Shown: one piece after another, positions 33,738-53,464 of the stretch
Position numbering within the stretch: the stretch's first letter is position 1
Layout: the number at the start of each line of letters is the position of its first letter
Source: Nanobdellota archaeon
GTDB lineage: Archaea > Nanobdellota > Nanobdellia > Pacearchaeales > GW2011-AR1
DNA: 64,000 nt
Assembly: GCA_038045945.1 (NCBI GenBank)
Contig: JBBSXC010000001.1
Coordinates: 64,001-128,000 of the forward strand
Direction: 5' to 3'
The notes under the pieces: generated by a model
What the model was told of the DNA's origin: nothing
Database searches by the model: none
What the model saw: the letters and a program-made list of their open reading frames with translations, nothing else
Program-made: the position numbers and the translations under genes

Positions 33738-34376
33738 TTATTTTTCTTTATAAAAGACGTGTTTGAATTCTTTAGCATTTTTTATTTCATCAAAAGTTTT
33801 TCTTTCCATTAGTTTTGAGCCAGCCCATTTAGGACTAATAGCTAAAGTGTGATAATGAGTTTGTCCAAGATTATAAGAATTGGAATTTTCTCCTAAGACA
33901 GTATCTGCAGCTGTTAAGCATTCTTCCCATGATTTCGAGTCATATCTTTGTGGGTCCATAAGTTTTTTCTTATTAGGATCATTATCGTTAAAGCATGAGT
34001 ATTGCCACTCTTTAAGTATAGAATCCTTTATTGTTTCCCCATTCCACTTTTTCCCATCTTTAGCTCTATTAATTGCCGTGTAAGCAATAACCCTTTTTTC
34101 TTCTCTAGAACAGTTTCTTGCTTCTCCAAAAAGCATTCTAGCAATTATTACTTTATCACTATCATTTTTAAAATCATTAGTGCTATAATCTACTTGTTTG
34201 GCTTTTTGTTTATCACTTTTTGGTAAATCAAATAATTCTAAGCGTTCTTCTAGTTGCGAGTTATTTGTTATTCCCTTAGGATTTTCTTCAGTATAAGTTT
34301 GGCTTTTATCAAAATAGTATATAAGCGCACTTAGACCTATTATTCCCCCAGCAACTATTTTTTGTCTAGTGTTCAT
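33738..34376 (-). CDS. SleB/Hydrolase_2-family cell wall hydrolase with N-terminal anchor
   Basis: ARMLFGEARN, VIAYTAINR, WQYSCFN, THYH, PKWA, HVFY. Confidence 0.88.
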   Translation of the reverse strand: MNTRQKIVAGGIIGLSALIYYFDKSQTYTEENPKGITNNSQLEERLELFDLPKSDKQKAKQVDYSTNDFKNDSDKVIIARMLFGEARNCSREEKRVIAYTAINRAKDGKKWNGETIKDSILKEWQYSCFNDNDPNKKKLMDPQRYDSKSWEECLTAADTVLGENSNSYNLGQTHYHTLAISPKWAGSKLMERKTFDEIKNAKEFKHVFYKEK

Positions 34377-34388
34377 TTTTGTCTAAGC

Positions 34389-34637
34389 TTATAGATGCGC
34401 TGCCTCCATTCTTCTATGCAATTTTTCTTTAGTTAATCCTAAATTTATTGCTTCGTCTAATAATTTTTCGTCAGCTAGGATAATAGCAGCAGCTAATTCT
34501 TTACCCTCAGGAGAATAATTATTACCTGCATTATTAGAGAAGTCTGTTCTTAGTGCTTCAAGGTCTATACTTCTTTGAGCGATTATTAAAGCGTACTGAG
34601 GTTTTTCTTTTAGTTTAGAGAAGTATTCTGGTTCCAT
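34389..34637 (-). CDS. Hypothetical protein
   Basis: 82 aa; start overlaps the upstream stop. Confidence 0.6.
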   Translation of the reverse strand: MEPEYFSKLKEKPQYALIIAQRSIDLEALRTDFSNNAGNNYSPEGKELAAAIILADEKLLDEAINLGLTKEKLHRRMEAAHL

Positions 34638-34918
34638 TATTGATTGCTCCCTTCATAATTTTCTTCGTTAATTTTTCCAATAGGTTTGCATTCGTCAAAA
34701 ACTATTTCTTCAGCTTCAAGAACGCCTAAATCACTAGCTAAAGCAACAACTCCCCTTTCTCTTCTTTCAAGTTCTCTTGTAAGCATCCTGCTCTTATGGT
34801 GATTCAAAACTCCTGAACGGTAGCGTCCTTCAACTTGGTTATTAGCTACTTCAGCTGCATTGACGACAGGTCTAAATGCAGCAGCAGCATACAAGACTTC
34901 TTTATAGTCAACTCTCAT
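34637..34918 (-). CDS. Hypothetical protein
   Basis: Likely start ATG 34918 (MRVDYK), TATA ~25 nt upstream. Confidence 0.6.
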   Translation of the reverse strand: MRVDYKEVLYAAAAFRPVVNAAEVANNQVEGRYRSGVLNHHKSRMLTRELERRERGVVALASDLGVLEAEEIVFDECKPIGKINEENYEGSNQ

Positions 34919-34937
34919 AAAAACTACAGGAAAAAGA

Positions 34938-34999
34938 ACTATATAAATCTTACTGATAGTGTATCTTAGTAGTAGTAACAAAAGGAAGATTTATATAGT
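34938..34999. promoter_or_regulatory. Divergent promoters with identical 14-mers (AAGATTTATATAGT)
   Basis: Perfect inverted repeat 34938-34951 / 34986-34999, each 19 nt from an ATG. Confidence 0.75.
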
Positions 35000-35018
35000 A
35001 TTGATGAATCAATGATTT

Positions 35019-35444
35019 ATGGTTAAAAAAGAAGTTTTTGATTGTGGATGTTACAGAGTATCGGGAAACTTTTATGATGACAATGACGAAACTATAGCAA
35101 CAGCTGTGGCTAGTGCTGCAAGGGAAGCTGAAGTAGCATCAAGAAATGCTAGTCAAAGACCAAAAGATTTGGACTTAATAGCGGGTAGTTTAGATGTCAG
35201 ATTCAGAATTAGAGGATTTAGGGGGGAAGGAAGTCCTAGGGAATGGAGAACTGCTCCATTGAGTAATTTATCACATGCAGCCGGTTTTACTCGTGAGAAA
35301 GCAATAAGAGACTTTGGAAGAGCAAACTACCAGTTATTGGAAGATCCATTAATGCCACTACAAGAACACATATATGGGGACGGGATGTACAGAGCTACTC
35401 TAGAAAAAGCGCAATTAGCTGTAAAGTTAGAAGAAATGAGATAA
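35019..35444 (+). CDS. Hypothetical protein
   Basis: 141 aa ORF. Confidence 0.65.
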   Translation: MVKKEVFDCGCYRVSGNFYDDNDETIATAVASAAREAEVASRNASQRPKDLDLIAGSLDVRFRIRGFRGEGSPREWRTAPLSNLSHAAGFTREKAIRDFGRANYQLLEDPLMPLQEHIYGDGMYRATLEKAQLAVKLEEMR

Positions 35445-35508
35445 AAAGTGAGAAAAATTATTATTATCTAATTAAAACTTTTATAAACTCTTCTTTTGTT
35501 GTTATTGT

Positions 35509-36807
35509 ATGGCTGATTTTAAGTTTAATTTTGGTGATTTTGTTAAGATTAAGGATAATAATGAATTTTTAGAGGGCGTTATACTTGAGAGTCCTGATAG
35601 CGAGTTTTATTTGTTGAAGCTTAATAGTGGTTATAATATTGGTGTTAGAAAAGAGAATATTGTTTCAATAGAGGTCGTTAATAGGAGGGTTGTGGAAAAA
35701 GTTGTTGATGTTAAGAAAAGTGTTGATAGTGGTCTTCCTAAAGTTGATATTATTATGACAGGTGGCACTATTAGTAGTCGTCTTGATTATAGAACTGGTG
35801 GTGTTACTAGTCTTACAAGCCCAGAGGACTTTTTTCGTTTTTACCCAGAAATTTTTAAGATTGCGAGCGTTAATAGGGTTGTTGTTCCTTTCATGAAGTT
35901 GTCAGAGAACATGGAGATTAAAGATTGGAAGATTATTGGTGAAGAAGTTGAGAAGAGTATGAATAATCCTGAGGTTGATGGTGTTATTGTTACTCATGGT
36001 ACTGATATTTTACATTATACTTCTTCTGCTTTATCTTTTTTCTTTCCTAAGCCTAATAAGCCTGTAGTTTTGACTTTTAGTCAGAAGAGTACTGATAGGG
36101 CTTCTTCTGATGCTTCTTTGAATTTGCAGTGTGCTGCTAGACTTGCAGTATCAAATATTGCCGAGGTTGTTATTGTTGGTCATTCTAGTACTAATGATGA
36201 TTTTTGTTATGCTCTTCTGGGAACTAAGGTTAGGAAGATGCATTCTACTTCTAGAGATGCTTTCAAACCTGTGAATATTGATCCTTTAGTTAAGGTTTAT
36301 TCTGATAGGATTGAGAAGTTGAATTATTTTAGAGAGAGACCTTCTAAGTCTGATAAGAGTGAAAAATTAAAGGGCGATATATTTATTAGTGAAAAGGTTG
36401 GCCTAATAAAGTTTTATCCTGGTCAAAGTTTTGAGATACTTGATTATTATTCTAAGATTTGTGAAGCTTTAATAATTGAAGGTGTTGGCGTTGGTAATGT
36501 TCCTGTTGAGGGTAATAATTCTTGGATTCCTTCTATTAAGAAGGCTATTAATAATGGTATGATGATTTTTATGACTTCTCAGACTGTTTTTGGTAGGACA
36601 GAGCCTTATGTTTATTCTACGGCTAGAGATTTGCAAAAAGCTGGCGTGATTTTTTTAGAGGATATGTTGAGTGAGGCTGCTTTTGTTAAGCTTTCTTGGG
36701 TTCTTGGTAATAAGAATTGGAATAAGGATAAAGAAACTATTAAGAAGAAGATGCTTGAGAATGTTAGTGGTGAGATTAATAATAGATTGCAGTTAAGGGG
36801 GGATTAG
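35509..36807 (+). CDS. gatD: Glu-tRNA(Gln) amidotransferase subunit D
   Basis: LKLNSGYNIG, TGGTISSRLDYRTGGV, VTHGTD, VRKMHS. Confidence 0.95.
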   Translation: MADFKFNFGDFVKIKDNNEFLEGVILESPDSEFYLLKLNSGYNIGVRKENIVSIEVVNRRVVEKVVDVKKSVDSGLPKVDIIMTGGTISSRLDYRTGGVTSLTSPEDFFRFYPEIFKIASVNRVVVPFMKLSENMEIKDWKIIGEEVEKSMNNPEVDGVIVTHGTDILHYTSSALSFFFPKPNKPVVLTFSQKSTDRASSDASLNLQCAARLAVSNIAEVVIVGHSSTNDDFCYALLGTKVRKMHSTSRDAFKPVNIDPLVKVYSDRIEKLNYFRERPSKSDKSEKLKGDIFISEKVGLIKFYPGQSFEILDYYSKICEALIIEGVGVGNVPVEGNNSWIPSIKKAINNGMMIFMTSQTVFGRTEPYVYSTARDLQKAGVIFLEDMLSEAAFVKLSWVLGNKNWNKDKETIKKKMLENVSGEINNRLQLRGD

Positions 36808-36809
36808 TT

Positions 36810-37349
36810 ATGTCTGTTAAGATTACTTATTTTGTTCATGGTACAACCACGGATAATGAGGAGGGGCTTTCTACTGGCCAAAATGATGGAGAGTTATCTG
36901 AACTTGGAGTAAAACAATCAAAGGATTTGCCAGGACAAGTAAAAGATAAGTCTTTTGTTGAAGTATTCTCCTCTGATTTAAGGAGGGCTATTGATTCTTC
37001 AGAGATTTCTTTTGGTGAGAATCGCCAGATAAGAATTGATGTGAGATTAAGAGAGTGTGATTATGGCAAGCTTAATGGGTCTAAGGAAGAAAAAGTTGAT
37101 TATTCAGAACACATTGATAACCCATTTCCTGATGGAGAATGCTTAAAGGATGTTGAGGAAAGAATGAGGAACTTTTTAAAATTCTTGAAAAGAAATTATT
37201 CTGGTAAACATATAGCGATTGTAGCTCATAAGGCACCACAATTAGCTTTGGAAGTTTTAACAAATAATAAGACCTGGAAGGAAGCCATTGAGCAAGATTG
37301 GAGAAAAGTTGGTAAGTGGCAACCAGGATGGATTTATACTGTTAAATAA
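36810..37349 (+). CDS. Histidine phosphatase family protein
   Basis: FVHGTT, SSDLRRA, LRECDYG, IVAH. Confidence 0.9.
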   Translation: MSVKITYFVHGTTTDNEEGLSTGQNDGELSELGVKQSKDLPGQVKDKSFVEVFSSDLRRAIDSSEISFGENRQIRIDVRLRECDYGKLNGSKEEKVDYSEHIDNPFPDGECLKDVEERMRNFLKFLKRNYSGKHIAIVAHKAPQLALEVLTNNKTWKEAIEQDWRKVGKWQPGWIYTVK

Positions 37350-37361
37350 TTTTATTAGATT

Positions 37362-38036
37362 TTAAGCTAAGGGCGTTATTGTTTTTCCAGCGAACATTAC
37401 TAAGAATATTACTGCTAATACTAATAATGCTAGCGGTATTATTATTAGTGCTAGGAATGCTTTCATCTTGGTCATTTTTTGGTATTTTGCTAGTGCTGCT
37501 ATTTCGAAGTAGAATACGTGTATTATTTGTATTATGAAAACTATCATTAGTCCTATGTATTCTGGACTTGTGTATGCGTCTGTTATTTGGCTTGACCCTA
37601 CTCTTAGTATTAGTGCTGCGCTTAGTATTGATGTTATTATTCCATAAGGCATCCCTAAAACCGCTCCGTACGTTGATGGTTTGTATGTGTTAAAGTATCC
37701 TTGTTTTCCTCCAAATATTAGTACCCCTAAGTGTATTATTCCTGCGAATATGAATGGTGTTACAAATGAGAATATTAATCCTGATAATAAATTGAGTATC
37801 ATTCCGCCTGTGCTTGTTGGGTTATTGCTTCTTAGTATCAGTGCTGTTATTATCGTGCTTAGTATTGTTATCCACACGTATGTTTTTACGTAGAAGAACA
37901 TTATTCCCTGGTAGTCTTTTTCTTCGTTCATTGATTCAGCGAACTTTTTAGGGTGGAAGAATAATTTTGAGAATTTAGAAAAGTATCCACTTATGCCTTT
38001 AGCACCTTGGACTTTATTGCCTCTTTCTTTAGCCAT
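37362..38036 (-). CDS. YIP1-family membrane protein
   Basis: LFFHPKKF, IIHLGVLIFGG...T, 5 TM segments. Confidence 0.8.
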   Translation of the reverse strand: MAKERGNKVQGAKGISGYFSKFSKLFFHPKKFAESMNEEKDYQGIMFFYVKTYVWITILSTIITALILRSNNPTSTGGMILNLLSGLIFSFVTPFIFAGIIHLGVLIFGGKQGYFNTYKPSTYGAVLGMPYGIITSILSAALILRVGSSQITDAYTSPEYIGLMIVFIIQIIHVFYFEIAALAKYQKMTKMKAFLALIIIPLALLVLAVIFLVMFAGKTITPLA

Positions 38037-38150
38037 TAAAAGAGTCACACAAAAAGCATTAATAAAGGTTATCAGAGAAACAATAAGCGTAGTAACTACT
38101 TATTAGTTACAAAAAGAAAGGTTTTTAAAGGAAAATGCCTGTTTATTTTA

Positions 38151-39293
38151 ATGACAGACCTAAATAAAAGCCATAGGATTATGGGCACGATTATATATGG
38201 ACTTGAAAGAGGAGTGGAAGGTAAAGAAGGATTCGAAGCATCTTTATCAAGACTTCATCTAGCCTTACTGAGCGGCCATAAACCCGAGTATAGCTCCAAA
38301 TCAGATTTTGTTAATGGAATTGTTGCTGACATGGAAAAATATTGTGGACTAGTTAAGGCTAGAAGAAATATCGTTGTTGAGGGCTCTAGCAGAGAGATGG
38401 CTACTGAAACTGAAGCACTAGAAAGCTTGAAGTATGCTGTTAAGATCGCTAAAGATTACTTAACGCCTTTTATGAGAAGGAGATTTGATTTTTCTGATAA
38501 GGTTTTTCACGATATCCATGACCTGGGAATAGCCTATGTAAACGCTGTAACTGACAGTGCTTCAGAAGAGTATATTCCTCGTGAAGCAACTGTTGATGCT
38601 AAATTAAGATCAACTAATCTTGCTAAGCAAGCTTCAAGAACGAGGAGAACTTATGCAGCAGACCATGTAAAGAAGGCAGATTTAGAAGACACATTGTCAG
38701 TTTTGTCTGATTCAGTTTCAAAGAATACCACTGAATCTTATATGAGGCCTTATGAAAATGTTGTTGTTACTCCTAAGAAAGTTTCTAAAAAAAGAAAGTT
38801 TACTGATAGGTTGATTGATGGACTAACTACAAGCTTAGGTACCGCTGAGAAATTAGAGTTTGTTCCAGATGTTATATTCCCTATAGCTACAGGTGGCGTG
38901 GAGTTAGGTATCGATGTCGCCATTGTTTATGAAAATTTTGGTTTTGACCCAATTGTTTATCCTGTAATGTTCTCTATGAAAACTAGAAAGCATAGGCACC
39001 CTTGGACTGCAAATGATGAAGAATTTTTAAGAACTAGAAATCATGAGGGAGAAAAGTTTTTAATAACTGAAGACTGGGTTACAACTGGTAACACTGTTAG
39101 AGGAGTAATAAACGAATTAGAATCCAGTTTTCCTAAAGAAATAAGAGTGGCTACAATAAAGAGAGATCCAAAAATATCTAGAATGCCTATACTTGATAAA
39201 TACAGATTCTATGTTGGCCAGTGGATCCCTTATAGAGGAAGCAAAACCGATTCAATAGCGGATCAGGCAGCACCTGAAAGTAAGTCTGAGTAG
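38151..39293 (+). CDS. Protein with C-terminal type I phosphoribosyltransferase domain
   Basis: PIATGG, LITEDWVTTGNT, IRVATI; ~210-aa unknown N-terminal region. Confidence 0.8.
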   Translation: MTDLNKSHRIMGTIIYGLERGVEGKEGFEASLSRLHLALLSGHKPEYSSKSDFVNGIVADMEKYCGLVKARRNIVVEGSSREMATETEALESLKYAVKIAKDYLTPFMRRRFDFSDKVFHDIHDLGIAYVNAVTDSASEEYIPREATVDAKLRSTNLAKQASRTRRTYAADHVKKADLEDTLSVLSDSVSKNTTESYMRPYENVVVTPKKVSKKRKFTDRLIDGLTTSLGTAEKLEFVPDVIFPIATGGVELGIDVAIVYENFGFDPIVYPVMFSMKTRKHRHPWTANDEEFLRTRNHEGEKFLITEDWVTTGNTVRGVINELESSFPKEIRVATIKRDPKISRMPILDKYRFYVGQWIPYRGSKTDSIADQAAPESKSE

Positions 39294-39350
39294 ACTTTAG
39301 TTTTTCCTCTTTTACTAAACCTTTAATAATCTCTTTGTTTTCTTTTTTTT

Positions 39351-42003: not shown

Positions 42004-43278
42004 ATGGAAAGAAAAATGATTAGCGATTTGAAGGAGGGCGAGCATTCTTTGATTAAGGGTTGGGTTCATGAAATTCGTGATTTGTCTAAGATGAAGTTTA
42101 TTCTACTTAGGGATTCTTCGGGTATTGTCCAGTGCATTATTAAGGATGATAAGTTGATGAAGGATTCTTCTAGCATTAGTTTGGAGAGCGTTATTGAGAT
42201 TGAAGGAGCGGTGAATAAGGCTTCTGTTAAGGCTGATCTTGCTCGTAAAGATGTTGAACTTCATGCTAAGTCTATTAAGATTCTTAGTTTGGCTGAAACT
42301 TTACCTATTCAAGTTAATGAAAAAACAATAACTACTGAATTACCAACAAGGCTTGATCATCGTTCTTTAGATGTTAGGAAGCCTAAAATTTCAGCTATTT
42401 TTAAGATTCAGAGTGAAATAGCTAATTCTTTCAGAAAGTTTTTTTATAAGAATGGTTTTACTGAGATTCAACCACCTTTTATTATTGGAGCAGCAAGCGA
42501 GGGTGGAAGTGAAGTTTTTGAGGTTAAATATTTTGATAAGAAGGCTTACTTAGCTCAAAGTCCTCAATTGTATAAACAAATGATGGCTTGTGCTTTTGAG
42601 AAAGTTTTTGCTTTAGGCCCTGCTTGGAGAGCAGAGAAGCATAATACTACTAGACACATTAATGAGATAAGGCAAATGGATGTAGAAGTAGCCTTCACCG
42701 ACCAAATGCAAATAATGAAGTTGCAAGAGGAGGTTTTACAATTCATAATTCAGAACGTTAAAGAAAGATGTTCAAGAGAACTAGAAATATTGGGAAGAAG
42801 TGATATAAAAGCTCCTAAGGGTGTATACTTACATTATGAGGATGCTATTAAGAAGTCTGGTGGAAAAATTGGTGAGGATTTTACTCCTGAACAGGAAAGG
42901 AAGCTTTGTGACATGTACCCTGGGGACATAGTGTTTACTCATTCTTGGCCTACAAGCATTAAAGTTTTTTATATAATGCCTAAGGATGGTAAGAAGAATG
43001 CTACTGAAAGTTGTGGTTTTGATTCTTTGTATGGCGGCGTTGAGATTTCTAGTGGTGGTCAACGTATTCACATTCCAGAATTATTAATTGATAGGATTAA
43101 AGCTAAGGGTTTGAACCCTAAAGATTTTAAAACTTATATTGATAGTTTCCGTTACGGTGCTCCACCTCATAGCGGTTGGGCTTTAGGTCTTGAAAGACTT
43201 ACCCAAATGATTTGCGGTCTTGATAATATTAAAGAAGCAACATTATTCCCTAGAGACAGGGATAGGTTGACACCTTAG
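42004..43278 (+). CDS. aspS: Aspartate--tRNA ligase (archaeal type)
   Basis: LAQSPQLYKQ, RAEKHNTTRH, EISSGGQR, YGAPPH, FPRD. Confidence 0.93.
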   Translation: MERKMISDLKEGEHSLIKGWVHEIRDLSKMKFILLRDSSGIVQCIIKDDKLMKDSSSISLESVIEIEGAVNKASVKADLARKDVELHAKSIKILSLAETLPIQVNEKTITTELPTRLDHRSLDVRKPKISAIFKIQSEIANSFRKFFYKNGFTEIQPPFIIGAASEGGSEVFEVKYFDKKAYLAQSPQLYKQMMACAFEKVFALGPAWRAEKHNTTRHINEIRQMDVEVAFTDQMQIMKLQEEVLQFIIQNVKERCSRELEILGRSDIKAPKGVYLHYEDAIKKSGGKIGEDFTPEQERKLCDMYPGDIVFTHSWPTSIKVFYIMPKDGKKNATESCGFDSLYGGVEISSGGQRIHIPELLIDRIKAKGLNPKDFKTYIDSFRYGAPPHSGWALGLERLTQMICGLDNIKEATLFPRDRDRLTP

Positions 43279-43282
43279 AACC

Positions 43283-44617
43283 ATGGTTAAAAAAGTAGAA
43301 AAAGTTTCTGTTGATACTCACAGCGAATCATTCATTAGTATTTCTGATGCTATCAAGCAAGGTTCTGGTCGTGTTTCTATTAGAGGTTGGGTTTATCGTG
43401 AGAGGGATGGAAAAGAATTAAGATTCATAGTCCTAAGAGACTCAAGTAATATAATACAGTGCGTGTTGAAAAAGGAAAAGTTTGAAAAACAATGGGGAGA
43501 GATAAGTAAAATAGGAATTGAAAGCTCACTAGAAATAGTTGGGGAAATAAAAGCAGACGCTCGAGCACCAACAGGTTACGAAATATCAGCAGAAAAAATA
43601 ATAATAGTGCAAATAGCTGAGGATTTCCCCATTAACAAAGATTTGAACGAGGAGTTGCTTGGAGACAGAAGGCATTTGTGGCTTCGTAGTAGAAAGATGA
43701 CTTCTATTATGAAGATTAGAAGCAGGTATATACAGGCTAGAGAAGCATTCTTTCATAAAGAGGGATTTTATCGTTTTGATACTCCTATACTTCAACCAAC
43801 ACAAAGCGAAGGTGGAAGTACAGTTTTTGAAGTAAAATATTATGATAAAAAAACGTTTTTAGCCCAAACATGGCAGTTATACGGCGAATCAGCAATTTTC
43901 GCTCTTGAAAAAGTTTACAATATGGGTCCAACTTTCAGGGCTGAGAAGAGTAATACTTCAAGACATTTATCTGAATTTTGGATGGCAGAAGTAGAAGTGG
44001 CCTGGTGGGGTCTTAAAGAAATATCTGAGTTTGCAAAAAAAGAATTAAAACATTGTATAAGCATAGTGGTAAAAGAATGTGAGGAAGAGTTTAAGATATT
44101 AGGAGTGGATGCAAAAAAATTGTTAGAGATGACAAAGAAAGAGTGGCCTACAATTAAGTATCGTGATGCACTAAAATTAATAAAAGAAAAAGATGGGATG
44201 ACAGTACCGTTCGGCAAGGATTTAAGGACAATTGAAGAACAAACAATAATGAAACATTTTGATACTCCTGTTGTTGTTACTCATTATCCTAAAGAAATAA
44301 TGGCTTTTTATAAGCCGAGTGACCCAAAAAGTCCTGATGAAGCATTATGCTTTGATATGTTAGCTCCACAGATAGGCATAGAGATAGTTGGAGGAAGCCA
44401 AAGAGACTTGAATGTTGAGGAGATGTCAAAAAAACTAAAAGCTGATGGTGAAGACCCAAAAAATTATCAGTTTTATTTTGATACTAGGAAGTATGGAAGT
44501 GTGCCTCATTCAGGATACGGAGTAGGAATCGAGAGGGTAATACAGTGGATTTGTGGTCTTGAAAGTATTAAGGATGCTATTGCCTTCCCTAGGACTATGA
44601 ATAGGACAACTCCTTAA
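43283..44617 (+). CDS. asnS: Asparagine--tRNA ligase
   Basis: RHLWLR, QLYGE, RHLSEFWMAE, EIVGGSQR, YGSVPHSG. Confidence 0.93.
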   Translation: MVKKVEKVSVDTHSESFISISDAIKQGSGRVSIRGWVYRERDGKELRFIVLRDSSNIIQCVLKKEKFEKQWGEISKIGIESSLEIVGEIKADARAPTGYEISAEKIIIVQIAEDFPINKDLNEELLGDRRHLWLRSRKMTSIMKIRSRYIQAREAFFHKEGFYRFDTPILQPTQSEGGSTVFEVKYYDKKTFLAQTWQLYGESAIFALEKVYNMGPTFRAEKSNTSRHLSEFWMAEVEVAWWGLKEISEFAKKELKHCISIVVKECEEEFKILGVDAKKLLEMTKKEWPTIKYRDALKLIKEKDGMTVPFGKDLRTIEEQTIMKHFDTPVVVTHYPKEIMAFYKPSDPKSPDEALCFDMLAPQIGIEIVGGSQRDLNVEEMSKKLKADGEDPKNYQFYFDTRKYGSVPHSGYGVGIERVIQWICGLESIKDAIAFPRTMNRTTP

Positions 44618-44720: not shown

Positions 44721-45524
44721 ATGAAGAGACGTTATTTTCCTTTGACTCGTGGTAAAAGGTTGAGGGAAGCAAATTTTGATTCCACTTGGGATAGTTATCT
44801 TAAAGGTAGAAGCGATTATGATCGTAATGCTTTGGTAGAGCATTATATGCCTTTAGTTGATGATGTTATTAATTCTTTAATTAGGACTTTGCCCCCTTAT
44901 ATTGATGTTCAAGAGTTGTCAGGTCCTGGGAATATGGGTCTTCTTCAAGCAGTTATTAATTGTGATTCTAAAAAACTAACAGTTTTTGATCATTATGCTA
45001 GGAAGAGAATAAAGGGTTCTGTTCTTGATCATTTGAGAAGTTTAGACTTTATGCCTAGGACTAGAAGAATATTTTTGAAGAAGTCAAAGAAGGCTGAGTT
45101 AAATCTCAATAATAAGCTTGGTAGAAAATGCACTGATGAGGAATTATGTAAATATATGGGTATGAGTTATGATGATTATTATAAGAAGATGTCTGAGGCT
45201 CGCGAAGTTGAGAGTTTGGAGTATGATGATTTTGGTACAGAAACAGCCTCTAATGATTTGAGAAGAAGGAGACTTTTATTAGAAGATTTAGATTTAGATC
45301 CTCAAATAGCAACTACTCTAAGAGAAGTTTCTAGTATAGCCAGGGATAATCTTTCTGATGAAGATTATAAGATGCTAACTTTAAGAATGGAGAATAGAGG
45401 TAATGAGGAGATAGGTATAAGTATTCGTGGTTTAGCTCCTTCCACAATTTGTGCTAGATTAAGAAAAGCGGTTTATCCTTGTATTAAGGAGAAATTGGGT
45501 GAAGGTTATGAAGAAGCAGCATAA
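44721..45524 (+). CDS. Sigma-70 family, FliA/WhiG-like protein
   Basis: Region 2 RNALVEHYMPLV...GNMGLLQAV...FDHYARKRIKGSVLDHLRSLDFMPR; region 3 LGRKCTDEELCKYMGMS; region 4-like LSDEDY...EEIG...TICARL. Confidence 0.85.
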   Translation: MKRRYFPLTRGKRLREANFDSTWDSYLKGRSDYDRNALVEHYMPLVDDVINSLIRTLPPYIDVQELSGPGNMGLLQAVINCDSKKLTVFDHYARKRIKGSVLDHLRSLDFMPRTRRIFLKKSKKAELNLNNKLGRKCTDEELCKYMGMSYDDYYKKMSEAREVESLEYDDFGTETASNDLRRRRLLLEDLDLDPQIATTLREVSSIARDNLSDEDYKMLTLRMENRGNEEIGISIRGLAPSTICARLRKAVYPCIKEKLGEGYEEAA

Positions 45525-46332
45525 ATTAGGAGTTTTTCTTGAAGGTGGTGGCATTAAGACTTTTTATGGAGGTGGAGTTATTGATCAATTAAAGGCTTTT
45601 GGGATAAAGCCCGATTATTATGCTGGCATAAGTGCTTCTGCTGGTACAATATTTGGTAACATTTTTTCTTGTAGTGAAGAAATAATTGATATTTTTGGTA
45701 AGAGGTGTGATAATAATAAGAAAAACTTTTATTTCTTTAGAAAGCCTCACTTTCCTCATAACCATATGATGGAGAATTCTCTTATAAAAATTTTTGATAA
45801 GCACATAAAGAATCCTAATTCTAAATCAGAATTCAAAATTATTGCCGGAATAACGAATAATAACTATTCTTGGGTTAAGACCCATTTGGTTCTTTATTTG
45901 ATGATAATGAAAAATCTTCTTCGCATAAACCTCTTTGATTATTTCAGAAAAATGTTTTCTGTTAAAGAATCAAGTATTACCTCTGATGATAACTTAGATA
46001 AAAAAGTTATTGTTAATTTTATTATGGGTTCTTCAAGCATCTATCCTTTCATCAAACCCCATTATCATGATGGTAAACTCTTGCTCGAGGCTAATTGTTT
46101 AGATCTAGATTACCAGAATTGTCTAAGTAATTGTGATAAAGGTATAATAATTCATAATTCTACTGGTAAAAGTTTTGTTAATGGTAAATTTTTACATGTT
46201 TATTCTTCTACTAGTTTGCCCAGTAACATTTTAGATTATACTAGCAAAGAAAAGCTTGTTAGTTTAAGAAAAGTTGGTATGCTAGAGGTAAAAAAGCAGA
46301 AATTTTTTGTTGAAAAGTTTATTTCTTCTTAA
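45508..46332 (+). CDS. Patatin-like phospholipase family protein
   Basis: LEGGGIK, AGISAS, GSSSIYP; overlaps the sigma gene stop. Confidence 0.75.
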   Translation: MKKQHKLGVFLEGGGIKTFYGGGVIDQLKAFGIKPDYYAGISASAGTIFGNIFSCSEEIIDIFGKRCDNNKKNFYFFRKPHFPHNHMMENSLIKIFDKHIKNPNSKSEFKIIAGITNNNYSWVKTHLVLYLMIMKNLLRINLFDYFRKMFSVKESSITSDDNLDKKVIVNFIMGSSSIYPFIKPHYHDGKLLLEANCLDLDYQNCLSNCDKGIIIHNSTGKSFVNGKFLHVYSSTSLPSNILDYTSKEKLVSLRKVGMLEVKKQKFFVEKFISS

Positions 46333-46418: not shown

Positions 46419-46643
46419 TAAAACAACGTAGCTATAGGGTAAAAATATATAAAGAAGAAGTGCTTCGTGTTTGTATTAATTTGACCCGCCAAGATTAAAT
46501 TAATACCGTTCGTTTAATGAAGAGTATTTCTTAAGAGTTATTTGTAACTCTTTTTATTAATAGGATAAAGAACAAACAAGTATTTAAACTTGCCGTTTTA
46601 TATTCTATCTAACAACACAAAAAGGAGGATACAAAAAAAGAAA

Positions 46644-47717: not shown

Positions 47718-47774
47718 TAGTTTCCAAATTATTATCATACTCCAGTATTCGGCAAGCTCATGATTTGTTTTTTT

Positions 47775-47840
47775 GAGGATCCGCCCATAAGGGAAGCGTT
47801 TCGCGACGCGTCCTAAGGGATTGGGCGGCCTCCATTTTTT
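47775..47840 (+). other. GC-rich stem-loop followed by a T-run (terminator or small RNA)
   Basis: GAGG/CCTC, CCGCCCA/TGGGCGG, AGG/CCT, GCGT/ACGC, then a T-run. Confidence 0.6.
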
Positions 47841-47892
47841 TATGTTTTATGGCTGCAAGTATGAAAGGTTTTTTAGGCTACTAGTCTTTTTT

Positions 47893-48405
47893 TTAGAATA
47901 TTTTTATTAATGTGTTGCTGAAGTATCCTGTGTTTGAGCAGTGGTATACTTTGTGTGTTACTTGATTTAGATTTCCGTAATAGATTAAGTTGTTTTTTTC
48001 TAATAATTCATCGTTTTCTTTTGCGTATTTTACTTGTGGTGGTTTGAACTTTTCTGGTTTGTAGCCTAAACATTCTTGGAATGCTTTTATTCCTTCATTC
48101 ATTTCTTCTTGTGTTCTTTGTGTTTCGAATTCTCTATAAGTATGGCGTATTCCGTGCAGCCCTAATGTTTTATTGAAGCTTTTAATGTAGTTGCACCATT
48201 GTGTGTTATTTGCTATTGACTGGTTTTGGTATAGTGGTATAATCCATAAAACATCGCTTTTTCTTATTAGTTCTTCATCGCATTGTATTAGTGGGTTTAG
48301 ATCGTCTAACTCTGCTCGGTTTATTAGTCTGATTGTAAATAATGCTAATATCAGTATTAGTATAGTAGCTGTTGTTATTATCAATCCCTTTTTTGTTTTG
48401 TTCAT
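47893..48405 (-). CDS. DUF2334/polysaccharide deacetylase-like protein
   Basis: N-terminal TM, LDDLNP, LGLHGIRH, FKPP. Confidence 0.7.
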   Translation of the reverse strand: MNKTKKGLIITTATILILILALFTIRLINRAELDDLNPLIQCDEELIRKSDVLWIIPLYQNQSIANNTQWCNYIKSFNKTLGLHGIRHTYREFETQRTQEEMNEGIKAFQECLGYKPEKFKPPQVKYAKENDELLEKNNLIYYGNLNQVTHKVYHCSNTGYFSNTLIKIF

Positions 48406-48415
48406 TAGAAAGAAT

Positions 48416-48967
48416 TTATTGTCTTTTGTTCTTATCCCATTCTTCAAAGTATAGTGTGTCTTCTATTTTTGGTTTCGCTGTCGCTTTTTTTCTGTCTCCT
48501 AACTTTACTGGTGCTTCGTAACCTATTGGTATTATTGCTTCCACTTCTACTTCTTTTGGTATTTTTAGTAATCTTTTTATTATTCTGTCTGAGAAGTGTC
48601 CTATCCAACAACTTGCCATTCCTGCTTCACTTATTGCTAGTAGCATGTTGTTTATTGCTGCTCCTGCTTCTTGGTGTGCGAACATTTCTCCTTTTTTTTC
48701 AAAGTTTCTTAATAGTTGTTCTTTTCGCGAGCATACGACTATTATTGCTGATACATCTGCCAGGAATCCTTGTTGGCATGCGTCTGCTATTTGCATAATC
48801 TTTTTTTGTTCGCTTACTATTATGTAGTTTAGTGTTGGTATGTTTCCTGCTAGTGGTACTTGGTTTGCGTAGTCTATTATTTCTGCTACTTCTTTCCAAC
48901 TCACAGTTTTTTCTTTTATGTATGATCTTACTGATTTTCTCTTTTTTAATAAGTCGTAAAAATTCAT
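48416..48967 (-). CDS. Nitroreductase family protein
   Basis: RKSVRSY, PLAGN, NMLLA...GMASCWIG, IPIGY. Confidence 0.9.
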   Translation of the reverse strand: MNFYDLLKKRKSVRSYIKEKTVSWKEVAEIIDYANQVPLAGNIPTLNYIIVSEQKKIMQIADACQQGFLADVSAIIVVCSRKEQLLRNFEKKGEMFAHQEAGAAINNMLLAISEAGMASCWIGHFSDRIIKRLLKIPKEVEVEAIIPIGYEAPVKLGDRKKATAKPKIEDTLYFEEWDKNKRQ

Positions 48968-49043
48968 ATAATGAGTATGTTTGGCAGGTATAAAAACTTT
49001 GAGATGCATTTTGTTAAGCACTTCTAAACCTCAAGAACTTTTT

Positions 49044-49415
49044 TTATAATATGTCGGCTCTGTCTATTTGTTCAAGAGTACTTTTAAGTGTTGCATCCAG
49101 GTCTTTTGCGTTAACACGGTTATTTCTAACAATCAACTTTTTTGCTTCTGCAAGGTTTCTTTCTGCTTCTTTCCATAAGCCTTTACTTAGTGATGCGCCT
49201 TCAAATGTTCCTACGTAGAAGTCTCTTCTGAGCCCGCCAGTCATACCCCTTCTTCTTTCTACTTCTGTTACAACAACGTTTGTGTTAGTTCCCTCATAGT
49301 TTGCTATGTAGAAGTTATGGTTTGCGTCATCATCACTTATAGTCATATTCGGTTCTTCACCATTAATTCCTGCTCTTCTCAGCGTTTCTGCCTTAGCGTA
49401 TCCTGTTAGTGTCAT
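49044..49415 (-). CDS. Hypothetical protein
   Basis: 123 aa ORF. Confidence 0.65.
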   Translation of the reverse strand: MTLTGYAKAETLRRAGINGEEPNMTISDDDANHNFYIANYEGTNTNVVVTEVERRRGMTGGLRRDFYVGTFEGASLSKGLWKEAERNLAEAKKLIVRNNRVNAKDLDATLKSTLEQIDRADIL

Positions 49416-49455
49416 GATTATCTAGGGTTATTTGGTATTAAAAGCATTGTTGTTT

Positions 49456-50577
49456 TTAGGAGGATACTATTCCACCACCTATTACTTCGTAGCTTTTTGG
49501 TTTGTATATTACGCTTGCTTGCCCTTGACTTATTCCTGTTGCTCCTTCTTTTAGTGTTATTGTGAAACTTTTCTTTTTTGTTTCGTATTTCATTTTTGCT
49601 GGTAATAATTCTCCTACTTTTCTTATTCTAACGTCCACCGTCATTTTTTTCTTTTTTGTTTCCTTAATGTCTTCTGTTATTAGGTGTAAATTTTTTATTG
49701 TGAAGTATTTTTTCAGTAATATTGGGTGTCCTTTTGGTGCTGCTACTATTATGTTTTTCTTTACGTCTTTTTTTGCTACGTACCACCTTTGTGAATTAAT
49801 CCTGTCGCGCACGCCAGGATTAATGTCAATACCAAAACGCGGGCCTATTCTTTGTCCTATTGTGTAGTAGAACACTCCGTCATGTTCTCCTATGATTTTT
49901 CCTTCTGGCGAGAGTATTTTTCCTTTTTTTTGTTTTATTTTCTTTTTTAAGAATTCTTTCAGATTTACCTTTCCTATGAAGCATATTCCTTTTGTTGATT
50001 CTCTGTCATGGTTTGGTAATTCTAGTTTTTTTGCTATGTTTCTTATTTCTTTTTTTGTGTATTCTCCTATTGGGAATAGTGTGTGGCTTAAGTCTTCTTG
50101 ACTTAGTCTGTATAGGAAGTATGATTGATCTTTTAGGTCTTCTTTTCCTCTAAGTAAATAATACTTGTTTTTTTTCTTTTTTATTCTTGCGTAATGTCCC
50201 GTTACTATGTACTGGCACCCTAATTTTTTTGCTGCTTTCCATAATAATGGGAATTTTACTAGTTGGTTGCAGTCTACGTCAGGGTTTGGTGTTATTCCTT
50301 CTTTGTATTGTTTGAACATTTCTTCTACTACACTTTTGCGGTATTCTTTTTCGAAATCTAGGGTTATTAGCGGTAGGTTTAGTTTTGCTGTTACACGTCT
50401 TGCCATTCTTCTGTCTTCGCGCCAGGAGCATTCTCCCATATCGTTTTTTGTGTCACTCCAATTTTTCATGAATGCACAAATAACTTCGTGTCCTTCTTTA
50501 TTCATTAAGTATGCTGCAATACTTGAGTCTACTCCACCCGATAACGCTACTAGTACTTTAGTTTTTTTCTTTTCCAT
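49456..50577 (-). CDS. mnmA: tRNA 2-thiouridylase MnmA (bacterial type)
   Basis: SGGVDSS, FMKNW, TPNPDVDCN, TGHYA, KDQSYFL, GICFIG, YTIGQR. Confidence 0.95.
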   Translation of the reverse strand: MEKKKTKVLVALSGGVDSSIAAYLMNKEGHEVICAFMKNWSDTKNDMGECSWREDRRMARRVTAKLNLPLITLDFEKEYRKSVVEEMFKQYKEGITPNPDVDCNQLVKFPLLWKAAKKLGCQYIVTGHYARIKKKKNKYYLLRGKEDLKDQSYFLYRLSQEDLSHTLFPIGEYTKKEIRNIAKKLELPNHDRESTKGICFIGKVNLKEFLKKKIKQKKGKILSPEGKIIGEHDGVFYYTIGQRIGPRFGIDINPGVRDRINSQRWYVAKKDVKKNIIVAAPKGHPILLKKYFTIKNLHLITEDIKETKKKKMTVDVRIRKVGELLPAKMKYETKKKSFTITLKEGATGISQGQASVIYKPKSYEVIGGGIVSS

Positions 50578-50609
50578 GATGTTTTTTAGAAATGTTTTGT
50601 TAAAAGTTT

Positions 50610-51194
50610 TTATTTGCTCATCTTTTTTAGTAATTCTACCACTATTGGTAATTCTTTTGTGCTGGCTGTTTCTTCGTCAAAGTGTCCCATTCCGGATAGC
50701 ATTATTATTTCGCTGTCTAGGTTGCTTTGGTATAGTGTTACGTTGTTCATTGGTACGTATGGGTCGTTGTCCGAGAATATTGCTACAAACTTCTTTGCTC
50801 TAGTTTTTATTTTTTCAAAGTTTGTTTTCATTTCCAGCCATGGTTTAGCTGTTAGCTTCATTTGAGGCTCAGGCGTTGCTTCTTTGCTTAGTGAGAACCA
50901 TCCTCCTACGAATATTACTCCTCCGCATACGTCTCCATCTGCTACTTCTCCTTCTAAATATTTCATTACTGCTTTGCATCCTATGCTGTGGCATATGAAG
51001 TATGTTTCTTCGTCTACTTCTCCTACAATTTTTACTAGTTTTTCTACCCATTCCCTAATTACTGGTGAATGTGTGTCTGGCATTTCTGGTATTTCTACTT
51101 TGAATCCTTCTTTTTCGAGTGTTCTGGCTACACTTTCGTACCAGTTCATTTTTGGGTTAAAATCCCATCCGTGAATAATGAATACTCTCTTCAT
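50610..51194 (-). CDS. RBBP9/YdeN-family alpha/beta hydrolase
   Basis: IIHGW, CHSIGC, SDNDPYV, GHF. Confidence 0.9.
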   Translation of the reverse strand: MKRVFIIHGWDFNPKMNWYESVARTLEKEGFKVEIPEMPDTHSPVIREWVEKLVKIVGEVDEETYFICHSIGCKAVMKYLEGEVADGDVCGGVIFVGGWFSLSKEATPEPQMKLTAKPWLEMKTNFEKIKTRAKKFVAIFSDNDPYVPMNNVTLYQSNLDSEIIMLSGMGHFDEETASTKELPIVVELLKKMSK

Positions 51195-51285
51195 AGCAAT
51201 AATTTAGGGTTTTTTGTCATATATTAATCTTGCTAATAAGTTTGTTATAGTTAAGCTTATAAATTAGGAAAATTGGTTTTATTTT

Positions 51286-51519
51286 ATGAGTAGGGCTTTG
51301 GAGTTTTTTAGACGAATCGATTTAAAATCATTAGCTAATGCTGCTGGCCAAGTAGTCGTTCCCGGTTATTCCACGGCTCATTATGTTTATTTTGATAGGT
51401 ACGCCGCTAACCCTCAAACTGATGGAAAAGTTTATGTTTTTGAGCAGAGAGCTAAAAGGTTTGGTTTAGATCTTGTTAAAGGCTTGGCTTGGTACGGTCT
51501 TTATGAGATTGTTAAATAA
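51286..51519 (+). CDS. Hypothetical protein
   Basis: 77 aa; TATA upstream. Confidence 0.55.
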   Translation: MSRALEFFRRIDLKSLANAAGQVVVPGYSTAHYVYFDRYAANPQTDGKVYVFEQRAKRFGLDLVKGLAWYGLYEIVK

Positions 51520-51526
51520 CATTTTT

Positions 51527-52006
51527 TTATTCTATTTTTAGCCCTGGGAATAGTTTTCTTTCTTCTTGTAATTCTGCCTTTCTTTCGCTCATTTTCCAGC
51601 CTAAGTCTAATAATTGGTCTTTTCCCATTGCTTTTCTTGCTTTTGGGAACATTTCTGATTCTTCTTCATGGGCGTGATGCCCTACTAACTCTTTTAGTAT
51701 TTTAGCTTTTGCTGAGAATACGTCTTGGTTTTTTTCTCCTCCCATTTTTGATATTAGGTAGTCTACTAGCTCTTGCTCTTCGTGTGCTTCATAGAATAAT
51801 TCTCTTCCTTCTTGTGTATTAACTGCGTTTTTGAATGCTGGATAAAATATTTCTTCTTCTATTTTAGTGTGTATAGTTAGTTCTTTCTTTATTTTTTTAA
51901 ATAATTCTTCATTAATGATTTTTGATGCTGTTAGTCTTTTTAATAATTCTCTAACTGTTTTATGATCATCTTTCAATAATTTAATTGCGTCCATTCTCTT
52001 AGCCAT
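51527..52006 (-). CDS. Hemerythrin/HHE domain protein
   Basis: LKDDH, HTKIEEEIFYP, HHAHEEESEMFP. Confidence 0.9.
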   Translation of the reverse strand: MAKRMDAIKLLKDDHKTVRELLKRLTASKIINEELFKKIKKELTIHTKIEEEIFYPAFKNAVNTQEGRELFYEAHEEQELVDYLISKMGGEKNQDVFSAKAKILKELVGHHAHEEESEMFPKARKAMGKDQLLDLGWKMSERKAELQEERKLFPGLKIE

Positions 52007-52122
52007 TATACTTAGAGTTCAATGACCCATAAAAAGCCGTGCAGTATGAAAGATAACGACTAAAATATAGAATTCTCCCATCCTTTAATGCTAGTTTTAG
52101 TGTTCTTTATCTAGCGTGTGTA

Positions 52123-52197
52123 CGTCCCGGGGAGGATTTGAACCTCCGACCCCCTGATTAACAGTCAGGTGCTCTAACCGGACTGAGCTACCGAGAC
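52123..52197 (-). tRNA. tRNA-Asn(GTT)
   Basis: Anticodon arm CCTGA-CTGTTAA-TCAGG. Confidence 0.95.
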
Positions 52198-52303
52198 ACA
52201 AAACAAACAAGAAAATACGCGTATTTAAGTTTAATTGTTAATAGGATGAATCCTGCGTTCTAGTATAGAAGTGTTTAAATTGTTCTTAGTCATGATACAC
52301 TCC

Positions 52304-53464
52304 ATGGATTCTAGACCTATTCCTGAAAGAATAAGTGAAAGAGTTTATAATGGTAGGAGTTTAGCTGAGATGCTCAATTTTTCTAGGGATTATGGTGCTA
52401 GTGATATTAAGTTTGTTGTTGGTTTGCCACCTTATTTTAGAAGGGGTGAAGGATTAGTTCATAATCTTGGTGATGGTAAGGGCGCTTTTGAGCCAGTAAA
52501 TCTTGAAACTATGAATAAGTTTGTTGATTGTTTAACAACACAAAAGCAGAGGGACAAGTTATTATCTGGAGAGGAGGATTTAGATATGTCAGTGATAATG
52601 CCAGAGAATGACGGGGCAAGATCTTATAGACTAAACTTGGCTATGCAGAAAGGAACGCCAATGATAATGATAAGAGTAGTTCCAGATAAAATAAGGCCTT
52701 TATCAGATCTTGGACTTCCAAAAACTATAATTGACTATTTTAGGACTTTACAAAGGGGTATTGTTTTGGTTACTGGGGCTACTGGTGCTGGTAAGTCTTC
52801 AACTTTAGCTGCGATGGTGGATGATATAAGAGTTAGGAATAGTGATGAGATAATAACTATTGAAGACCCTATAGAGTATGTTCATAATTCTGATTCATCA
52901 TTAATAATTCAGAGGGAGTTAAGAAGGGATACTCAGTCATATAGTTCGGCATTGAAGTCTGCTATGAGACAAGACCCTGACGTTATAGCTATAGGAGAAA
53001 TAAGGGATACTGAAACCGTGAGAGCATGCTTAGAATCATCTTATACCGGTCACTTAGTCTTAGGAACTTTACACACTGCTGATGCTATACAAAGTGTTAA
53101 TAGAATGATCGATTTGTTTCCTGAAAGTTTACAAAGAGATATATCGTCTCAGCTTTCCGATACTTTAAGAATTGTTATTTCTCAGTCTTTAGTTCCAACA
53201 ATTAATGGTGGTAGAAAACTTGTGGCTGAGATTTTGAGGAATGACCCTTTTTCTGCTATATCTAAACAAATCCGTGATAGGGATCCTCCTGGAAAAATTT
53301 TGTCTAGTATGCAAACAGGTAAGAGGTATGGGATGGTAGTTATGGAAGACGCATTGTTTGACGCTTATCAGGCAAATCTTATCGATAAAGTAACAGCTTT
53401 TGGTTATGCTATAAGAAAAGATGAGATGAAAAGAAAACTAGATTTTGGCGAGTTAGGCAAATAA
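52304..53464 (+). CDS. pilT: Type IV pilus retraction ATPase PilT/PilU family (bacterial type)
   Basis: GASDI..VVGLPPYFR, TGATGAGKSSTL, TIEDPIEY, RQDPDVI.IGEIRD, TGHLVLGTLHT, MQTG..YGM. Confidence 0.88.
   Translation: MDSRPIPERISERVYNGRSLAEMLNFSRDYGASDIKFVVGLPPYFRRGEGLVHNLGDGKGAFEPVNLETMNKFVDCLTTQKQRDKLLSGEEDLDMSVIMPENDGARSYRLNLAMQKGTPMIMIRVVPDKIRPLSDLGLPKTIIDYFRTLQRGIVLVTGATGAGKSSTLAAMVDDIRVRNSDEIITIEDPIEYVHNSDSSLIIQRELRRDTQSYSSALKSAMRQDPDVIAIGEIRDTETVRACLESSYTGHLVLGTLHTADAIQSVNRMIDLFPESLQRDISSQLSDTLRIVISQSLVPTINGGRKLVAEILRNDPFSAISKQIRDRDPPGKILSSMQTGKRYGMVVMEDALFDAYQANLIDKVTAFGYAIRKDEMKRKLDFGELGK

Follow-up and report, generated by a model that had tools for sequence, protein, structure and literature searches.

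The idea that archaea such as the Pacearchaeota exploit bacteria is already published, and whether DPANN archaea live on bacteria is debated, with gene lists of the kind examined here as the usual argument. In this work we describe a 64,000-nucleotide stretch of DNA, called the window throughout, from a Nanobdellota archaeon (G000:C1:64001-128000, where G000 is the label of the genome that carries the window). It encodes four proteins of bacterial type: a SleB/CwlJ-type cell-wall hydrolase, a FliA/WhiG-like sigma factor, a patatin-like acyl hydrolase and a PilT/PilU-family ATPase. An earlier note, made from the letters of the window, had read these dispersed genes, by way of hypothesis, as one toolkit for breaching and manipulating a bacterial host or prey. 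Our comparisons with related genomes make it likely that they are independent acquisitions of different ages, seated in variable slots of a collinear Pacearchaeota-type chromosome, and not one machine. The case illustrates that such a gene list can dissolve on inspection; one of its members, a PilT in an archaeon, contradicts a textbook-level statement.

Of the described systems, those of Castelle et al. 2021 (PMC8204110) include sigma-70-type factors in about 38% of 90 Pacearchaeota and 39% of 196 Woesearchaeota, for which no anti-sigma factor was identified; that paper also treats murein-degrading proteins and raises bacterial hosts for some DPANN. Their sigma frequency of about 38% compares with Sigma70_r2 matches in 53 of the 151 genomes, drawn from 9 families and 84 genera of the order, in which each of our four protein families was searched, 49 of them over the cut-off. 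The sigma family described there is annotated as a primary sigma factor, whereas that of the window is a FliA/WhiG-like orphan, and the wall enzyme described there is a giant lytic transglycosylase, whereas here we find a small SleB/CwlJ-type protein in a genome in which no SLT domain was found. Neither PilT nor twitching, patatin or cell wall hydrolase is mentioned in two supplement files of the same paper. A 2025 study in PLoS Biology (PMC12352652) counts peptidoglycan hydrolase homologues in 175 of 3,706 archaeal genomes, prominently in Nanoarchaeota, reports that such archaeal enzymes kill bacteria, and takes their target to be bacteria and not the producer's own wall. That survey sought modular hydrolases, whereas the protein of the window has Hydrolase_2 only, with no wall-binding module seen; Hydrolase_2, SleB and PF07486 are unnamed in its main text. 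Similarly, Vigneron et al. 2022 (PMC9723730) propose, from genomes alone, 'vampiristic' Woesearchaeota that prey on bacteria by combining peptidoglycan degradation with membrane-damaging proteins. The genes concerned are GH23 transglycosylases and a tlyC-type pore-forming toxin, and phospholipase, pili and sigma have zero occurrences each in that paper. Among our four genes only the hydrolase bears on action against bacteria, and what its sequence suggests agrees with these proposals. The hint in the earlier note of an archaeon that exploits bacteria keeps this support, to which the sigma factor, the patatin and PilT, taken as a system, add none.

Synteny and co-occurrence of the four genes

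The window belongs to a genome of 847,022 bp in seven contigs, with a GC content of 0.35 and 93% complete. The same contig encodes Rpb1- and Rpb2-type RNA polymerase subunits, GatD and GatE, eIF-1A and a KH/PNO1-like protein (Pfam), and because of these archaeal genes the organism is an archaeon; organism names among the homologues of the hydrolase and the patatin include Candidatus Pacearchaeota and Nanoarchaeia. A chromosome of Pacearchaeota type thus carries all four bacterial-type genes, each flanked by archaeal housekeeping genes. All four were confirmed in place by Pfam and NCBIfam, the start that the earlier note had given for PilT (52304) being one of three candidates. The GC content is even over the region (0.33-0.36), the codon-usage z-scores of the four genes are +1.0, -0.4, -0.2 and -0.6, and their codon-usage fit and GC content at third codon positions (GC3) lie within about 1-1.7 standard deviations of 461 genes of the genome.

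Public contigs contain the stretch in four DNA runs of one groundwater study, with no RNA run among the matches listed. One contig (43652-52176) extends from the 3' end of an aminoacyl-tRNA synthetase (aaRS) gene through the sigma, patatin and FtsZ genes and on to hemerythrin, and a second (52147-54821) carries PilT, KH and eIF1A; both show zero differences from the window and an even depth, the four runs possibly being the source sample and hence a second assembler, not independent data. The break between these contigs (52147-52176) falls within the tRNA-Asn(GTT) gene, just upstream of PilT, where a conserved tRNA-like sequence would split an assembly graph. Two candidate contig joints (45843 to 52853 and 51872 to 53872), with only 21 letters on one side, were discarded as probable cross-matches.

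Key to our reading is a genome of the same genus (G522), which encodes both the hydrolase, at 54% identity, and the patatin, at 68%, and in which, at 79% completeness, the sigma factor and PilT were not found. Its contig C3 is collinear with the window from 30.4 to 46.3 kb over nine genes, which encode a 678-amino-acid (aa) secreted protein, a class I aaRS, the hydrolase, GatD, a histidine phosphatase, GatE, two class II aaRS and the patatin, with best-hit identities that are lowest for the first class II aaRS (46%) and highest for the class I aaRS (73%). Between these nine, each genome has short genes without a counterpart in the other; in G000 they are three orphans that follow the hydrolase, Yip1, a phosphoribosyltransferase, a glyoxalase, a 119-aa orphan and the sigma factor. 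Furthermore, G522 retains the order RpoB, RpoA, eIF1A and KH (the KH protein being 61% identical) together with an orthologous tRNA-Asn. At the place of the sigma gene, both G522 and a metagenome contig (L128) have the orthologues of the aaRS (62%) and the patatin (68-70%) just 303 bp apart, in a gap that holds a 63-aa open reading frame (ORF) and in which tblastn found no sigma remnant. At the place of PilT, the interval from tRNA-Asn to KH measures 1,275 bp with PilT in G000 and 1,180 bp with two small unrelated ORFs in G522. Since the genes between the backbone genes differ from G522 generally, the dispersed bacterial-type genes follow the general pattern of the genome and mark no special system. 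The comparison illustrates how reduced genomes change, with a housekeeping backbone that stays collinear and short slots filled by differing lineage-specific genes.

Co-occurrence across the order points in the same direction. All four families are found together in one genome of the 151, G000 itself, and the hydrolase, sigma and patatin families without PilT in G000, G009 and G045. No pairwise association among the families was significant in these genomes; the strongest, between hydrolase and patatin, was seen in 5 genomes where 2.4 would be expected (one-sided Fisher p = 0.06; p = 0.14 when G000 is left out), and kinship makes the genomes non-independent, such that even these figures exaggerate the association.

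The hydrolase, the patatin and the sigma factor

The hydrolase begins with a basic and hydrophobic segment, continues with a variable linker and ends in a C-terminal catalytic domain, the first two making up residues 1-90. All nine aligned orthologues share the basic and then hydrophobic start, the variable linker, the conserved domain and an invariant Glu85, and Hydrolase_2 scores in relatives range from 33 to 60 bits. A search of solved structures with the single sequence returned spurious repeat-protein matches only, while a profile of the nine orthologues matched two SleB structures (4FET and 4F55; E 1.5e-5) and aligned the glutamate (E85) of its GE(A/S)R motif to the YGEsRGE stretch of 4FET. 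We take this glutamate to be the catalytic residue of SleB/CwlJ hydrolases. Compared with SleB of Bacillus anthracis and B. cereus, the protein thus has the same catalytic domain family and an aligned Glu, but it has a hydrophobic N-terminus and a variable linker and no recognisable wall-binding domain; the match is distant and depends on a profile, and there are no sporulation or germination genes here. With Hydrolase_2 as the sole domain detected in it, and none of the N-terminal peptidoglycan-binding kind found in SleB, the protein is best classed by sequence as of SleB/CwlJ type and not as SleB proper. Phage endolysin families in PHROGs match it as well (phrog_938, 45.5 bits).

The history of this gene appears to be archaeal. 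Of 97 homologues found, the four with organism names are all from archaea (Pacearchaeota twice, Nanoarchaeia once and 'uncultured archaeon' once). In six of nine relatives' loci the Hydrolase_2 gene has a class I aaRS homologue no more than 1.5 kb away, as it does in the window, and in G522 the two genes adjoin. Hydrolase_2 occurs in 11 of the 151 order genomes (10 over the cut-off), all within the window's own family. Judged by these sequence relations, the hydrolase is an old gene, vertically kept in one subclade, and a member of an archaeal SleB/CwlJ-type clade; being old and stable there, it is a good candidate for an enzyme assay. The protein would be made with an N-terminal segment for export or anchoring, and from its family and this N-terminus we infer that bacterial peptidoglycan is its most likely extracellular substrate, be it in the wall of a prey, competitor or partner cell or in wall debris. 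In an organism without a peptidoglycan wall, a conserved muralytic enzyme with an export-type N-terminus points to bacterial peptidoglycan as the target. No SLT, Amidase_2, Peptidase_M23 or LysM domain was found elsewhere in G000 (93% complete). A conserved small partner upstream of the hydrolase was considered and rejected, the upstream ORFs in nine relatives and G522 being unrelated to that of the window. Near the hydrolase gene, the 678-aa protein (30437-32473, minus strand) has a clear signal peptide and no family match, and over its last 181 residues it has 55% identity to a partial ORF with which the G522 stretch ends; it is a secreted or surface protein specific to the lineage.

The patatin belongs to a small and divergent subfamily. 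Its 23 homologues include proteins named for Pacearchaeota (68% identity) and Nanoarchaeota (48%), two without organism name (65% and 62%) and one named for Candidatus Kaiserbacteria, one of the candidate phyla radiation (CPR) bacteria, at 36% identity over 98% of the query (P0263). The Kaiserbacteria-named member of so rare a subfamily is in itself a hint of gene sharing between ultra-small archaea and CPR bacteria. Patatin-like phospholipases have a G-x-S-x-G nucleophile motif and a Ser-Asp dyad whose acid lies in a D-G-G/A motif. Across 16 sequences of the subfamily, the glycine-rich oxyanion motif is kept, with G14 and G15 invariant in GGG/GGN, and invariant G40, S42 and S44 form G-x-S-x-S in place of G-x-S-x-G; the column of the dyad acid holds Glu in 14 sequences and Asp in 2, the window protein reading E-A-N. 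It has neither an export signal nor an N-terminal hydrophobic segment. While the patatin family occurs in 33 of the 151 order genomes, the window's own subfamily is found in one at E 1e-8 or better, yet it is present in G522. A scan of metagenomes with the protein alone found no relative, and a rescan with the alignment found 18 loci. The protein would be a cytoplasmic acyl-ester hydrolase, inherited at least within the genus, that probably processes ester lipids taken up or made by the cell. G000 has another patatin gene, on contig C3, whose product shows no relation to this one by BLASTP.

The sigma factor matches FliA/WhiG (TIGR02479) best among NCBIfam models, at 104.5 bits and under the cut-off of 189.6; from its sequence it is FliA/WhiG-like, not a certified member of that subfamily. 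No Pfam Sigma70_r4 match was obtained, and in region 4 the WhiG model aligns as far as residue 251. An AlphaFold2 model with a predicted local distance difference test (pLDDT) of 84 comprises sigma2 (16-108), sigma3 (113-164), a disordered linker and sigma4 (194-259), this last predicted helical domain having a block pLDDT of 88-94; all 49 Foldseek matches listed for the model are bacterial sigma factors, with sigma-28, WhiG and SigD structures among the top ones. A word-indexed search of 5.8 billion proteins returned the protein itself and two others at 36-37% identity, one of them named FliA/WhiG and from an Aquifex sp. metagenome-assembled genome. In an exhaustive search of 1.84 billion cluster representatives, 9,146 relatives were found at E 0.001 or better, and the protein itself was the sole match at 1e-30 or better, the next scoring 108 bits at 33% identity. 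All 68 of the nearest relatives examined, chosen from 150 listed, match FliA/WhiG models, and the window's own sigma type was found in six of the 151 order genomes. Bacterial sigma-28 (FliA/WhiG) is thus its best family match and shares the three-domain model, whereas the window protein scores below the cut-off and occurs in one genome only; no bacterial core polymerase was seen among the genes of the window, a genome-wide search for one not having been made. A complex prediction that paired its residues 12-165 with the N-terminal 340 residues of RNA polymerase subunit A, made with alignments of both and without controls, scored 0.31 against a mark of 0.32 and speaks neither for nor against a complex. 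The protein would be a full-length yet orphan sigma factor; in this lineage its gene stands between that of an aaRS and that of the patatin, which is older than it.

The sigma and patatin genes overlap by 17 nt in G000 and, given this overlap, are probably co-transcribed today. Their adjacency was observed in none of 12 other order genomes with both families and at none of five loci of the nearest sigma relatives in the order. Because the sigma gene is missing from the slot in G522 and L128 and lies apart from patatin elsewhere, the pairing arose by chance at this locus, through insertion here or through loss in the relative. A defence-system reading of the pair was dropped, neither protein having a PADLOC match. 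Two further observations concern the surroundings of the sigma factor. A second sigma factor of G000 (C5:57703-58569, plus strand) is RpoD/RpoS-like with regions 2 and 4, unrelated to the first by BLASTP, and lies among housekeeping genes, those for ribosomal protein S2 and a tRNA-binding protein included. To the left of the sigma slot, 42004-44617 (plus strand) holds two class II aaRS genes in tandem, both of Asp/Asn/Lys type, of which further paralogues occur in the same G522 stretch.

A PilT-family ATPase and an archaeal pilus system

Makarova et al. 2016 state that the PilT family is not encoded by archaea, and a 2018 review that no PilT homologue has been identified in them; we found no report of an archaeal PilT (DPANN, Nanoarchaeota or Woesearchaeota) in open-access papers and preprints, the one candidate concerning Patescibacteria. 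The most novel element of the window is a true PilT gene, carried by a chromosome of an archaeon that has a pilus of archaeal type encoded as well, and it contradicts these published statements.

The alignment of the window protein to TIGR01420 covers model positions 2-343 of 343, and its translation contains all four stretches that we take to be the PilT ATPase motifs, namely Walker A, Asp box, Walker B and His box. Among its relatives in species-representative genomes, the best 80 of 217 are all bacterial by title and at most 42% identical. PilT over the cut-off was found in 2 of the 151 order genomes (G000 and G150) and in 2 of 401 genomes from a further sample of high-quality genomes of the phylum (G000 and G207). 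The other TIGR01420 matches listed reach at most 62 bits and lie in archaeal-type ATPases of 500-700 aa, except for one protein of G092. That protein (G092:C2; L014 1105-3072, minus strand), from a genome of the same family, is a full-length bacterial PilB/GspE-like ATPase of 655 aa (T2SSE 345 bits, model positions 11-367) and represents another bacterial pilus or secretion gene in these archaea. In a tree of 81 rows (LG+G4, quick search, with the fused or tandem rows L074 and L088 dropped), the window PilT has an end branch of 1.56 and a basal, unresolved position from which no donor phylum can be named. The PilT proteins of two other Nanoarchaeota genomes, G150 and G207, are 42% and 37% identical to it. 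Both stand at non-syntenic sites that lack pilus genes, and their contigs also encode proteins with 56-66% identity to those of G000, e.g. a CDC48-type ATPase in G207.

Compared with bacterial type IVa PilT/PilU, the window protein shares a score above the cut-off, the motifs, a length of about 350-400 aa and bacterial best relatives, but it has an archaeal host, archaeal-type pilus machinery and no PilB, PilC or PilM-Q neighbours. The earlier note had found the usual partners of these bacterial-type genes absent from the window; this holds for PilT, with no pilus gene among 36 ORFs scanned from 27 to 64 kb, while anti-sigma factors were not searched by family. Contig C3 of G000, at about 163-173 kb, encodes pilins whose N-terminal domain is archaeal, together with a FlaI/ArlI-like ATPase and a platform protein like ArlJ/UpsF, and a second platform-like gene lies at C3:194 kb and a prepilin peptidase at C4:224.8 kb; the other two T2SSE ATPases and the two T2SSF proteins of G000 match archaeal FlaI/ArlI, TadA-type and ArlJ/UpsF families. 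G000 encodes a complete archaeal type IV pilus system away from the window. PilT would be a single gene of this lineage between tRNA-Asn and the KH-protein gene, beyond which follow eIF-1A and RNA polymerase subunit A, and, if it is active, the archaeal type IV pilus on another contig would be its only plausible substrate in the genome.

A tentative and, on balance, doubtful extension of these findings is that PilT was gained from bacteria as a single gene beside tRNA-Asn and was wired to the archaeal pilus, giving a tiny symbiont a retractile, motor-driven pilus. If true, such a pilus could serve for pulling on a host cell or for DNA uptake, as in CPR bacteria, and the divergent, non-syntenic PilT genes of G150 and G207 would mean repeated independent gain. 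Whether a retraction motor from bacteria is able to drive the pilus of an archaeon is a question for which the archaeal PilT provides a natural test. An integrated element at tRNA-Asn was also considered and set aside, with no att-like direct repeat in 51-55 kb and PilT lying on the 5' side of the tRNA. The tRNA-Asn(GTT) itself has no intron in G000, and its orthologue in G522 (L179 15-111, minus strand) has a 20-nt insert in the region of the anticodon loop and was left untyped by ARAGORN.

Alternative explanations and neighbouring genes

Of the explanations that compete with independent acquisition, it is extremely improbable that bacterial DNA misjoined to an archaeal contig in assembly or binning supplied the bacterial-type genes. 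The origin of the genome from a metagenome assembly and the break of the public contigs directly upstream of PilT would fit such an artefact, but the break lies inside a conserved tRNA-Asn gene, single contigs of even depth tie PilT to KH/eIF1A and the sigma gene to its aaRS and patatin neighbours (in a second assembler, perhaps on the same sample), composition and codon usage agree with the genome, and a second genome has the hydrolase and patatin at corresponding places. Somewhat less remote, and still highly improbable, is the toolkit of the earlier note, in which the four genes would jointly breach (hydrolase and patatin), hold (PilT pilus) and reprogram (sigma factor) a bacterial host or prey. 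Bacteria are the normal target or setting of each family, the hydrolase combines an export-type N-terminus with a conserved Glu, the sigma and patatin genes overlap, bacterial hosts or prey have been proposed in print for Pace- and Woesearchaeota, and the PLoS Biology study reports archaeal peptidoglycan hydrolases that kill bacteria. Against this, the four families meet in one genome of the 151 with no significant pair, and the genes differ in age, the sigma and PilT slots of G522 being without them. The donors that the note would have expected to coincide fall apart into an archaeal clade (hydrolase), a subfamily with a CPR-named protein (patatin), an orphan (sigma factor) and a PilT whose donor cannot be named. 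The expected shared export motif is likewise missing, an N-terminal hydrophobic segment being present in the hydrolase alone and absent from the sigma factor, the patatin and PilT. Nor is the hydrolase joined by SLT, Amidase_2, M23 or LysM domains in the genome, and PilT has archaeal partners at hand in the pilus locus, of the kind that the note had named as evidence against its own proposal. The reading of one system thus fails on co-occurrence, shared history, donors and archaeal partners.

An unlikely possibility, although a more credible one than these two, is that the sigma factor and PilT are neutral cargo, recently gained single genes with no working role and heading for loss. Their absence from the assembled syntenic slots of G522, the lack of a sigma orthologue in protein searches, the rarity of true PilT in both genome samples, its long branch and the score of the sigma factor under the FliA/WhiG cut-off would all be expected of such genes; however, both reading frames are intact, PilT passes a curated cut-off with all four ATPase motifs, the three-domain sigma model is confident, and codon usage is fully adapted to the genome, which argues for long residence in a streamlined 847-kb genome. 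Independent acquisition in variable slots, which we favour, has points against it as well. The 17-nt overlap makes present-day co-transcription of sigma and patatin probable, and Hydrolase_2 and patatin co-occur somewhat above expectation. For the sigma factor and PilT, the difference may reflect loss in G522 instead of gain in G000, and in a genome that is 79% complete either could sit elsewhere. Furthermore, the sets of 151 and 401 genomes only sample their groups, presence at family level lumps non-orthologues (the window's own patatin subfamily being in 1 and its own sigma type in 6 of the 151), and the roles proposed for all four genes are predictions from sequence.

The features discussed here are collected in the table below. 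The orphan ORFs were compared with Pfam, NCBIfam, PADLOC and PHROGs. The three nearest the hydrolase lie between its gene and gatD and are specific to G000, with no homologues in the hydrolase loci of nine relatives and with one unrelated 93-aa ORF in their place in G522. The description of these ORFs in the earlier note as orphan and soluble holds as to the first term for all of them, and as to the second the frame at 34637-34981 is not clearly soluble.

Table. Bacterial-type genes, their boundary genes and orphan reading frames in the window (positions count from the first letter of the window).
Feature	Position	Strand	Evidence and remarks
Class I aaRS (TrpRS/TyrRS family), hydrolase synteny anchor	32594..33736	+	PF00579
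SleB/CwlJ-type cell-wall hydrolase (Hydrolase_2), 212 aa	33738..34376	-	PF07486 35.9 bits, cut-off 27
Orphan ORF	34389-34637	-	no family match
Orphan ORF	34637-34981	-	no family match; hydrophobic N-terminus if TTG start real
Orphan ORF	35019-35444	+	no family match
Orphan ORF, 119 aa	41579..41938	+	no family match; no homologue in collinear G522 stretch
Class II aaRS (Asp/Asn/Lys type), left anchor of sigma slot	43283..44617	+	PF00152, PF01336
Orphan FliA/WhiG-like sigma-70-family factor, 267 aa	44721..45524	+	Sigma70_r2 24.9 bits (cut-off 24), Sigma70_r3 32.9 (25.3)
Divergent patatin-like acyl hydrolase, 274 aa, alternative GTG start 45499	45508..46332	+	PF01734 45.3 bits, cut-off 27.7
Orphan ORF, 123 aa	49044..49415	-	no family match
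Orphan ORF, 77 aa	51286..51519	+	no family match; codon-usage z = -1.5, lowest of set
tRNA-Asn(GTT), left boundary of PilT slot	52122..52198	-	ARAGORN
PilT/PilU-family ATPase, starts GTG 52271, ATG 52292 or 52304	52271..53464	+	T2SSE 144.9 bits; TIGR01420 329.3, cut-off 319.1
KH-domain (PNO1/KRR1-like) protein, right boundary of PilT slot	53473..54246	-	Pfam

Several further genes of the window are of interest in their own right. A DUF2334 protein (47893-48447, minus strand) has a weak match to the polysaccharide deacetylase PdaB and a strong N-terminal membrane segment, and may be a second envelope-directed enzyme of bacterial type. An MnmA-type tRNA 2-thiouridylase (49456-50577, minus strand; tRNA_Me_trans, 247 bits) lies in a region with a nitroreductase, a serine hydrolase and hemerythrin, families that are common in bacteria. 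RNA polymerase subunit A (54831-58292, minus strand) is a single ORF of 1,153 aa with Rpb1 domains 1-5. Its counterpart in G522 (G522:C27; L179 3287-8170) has 1,627 aa, about 470 aa more than in other relatives (1,133-1,203 aa), and this extra length could be an inserted element such as an intein.

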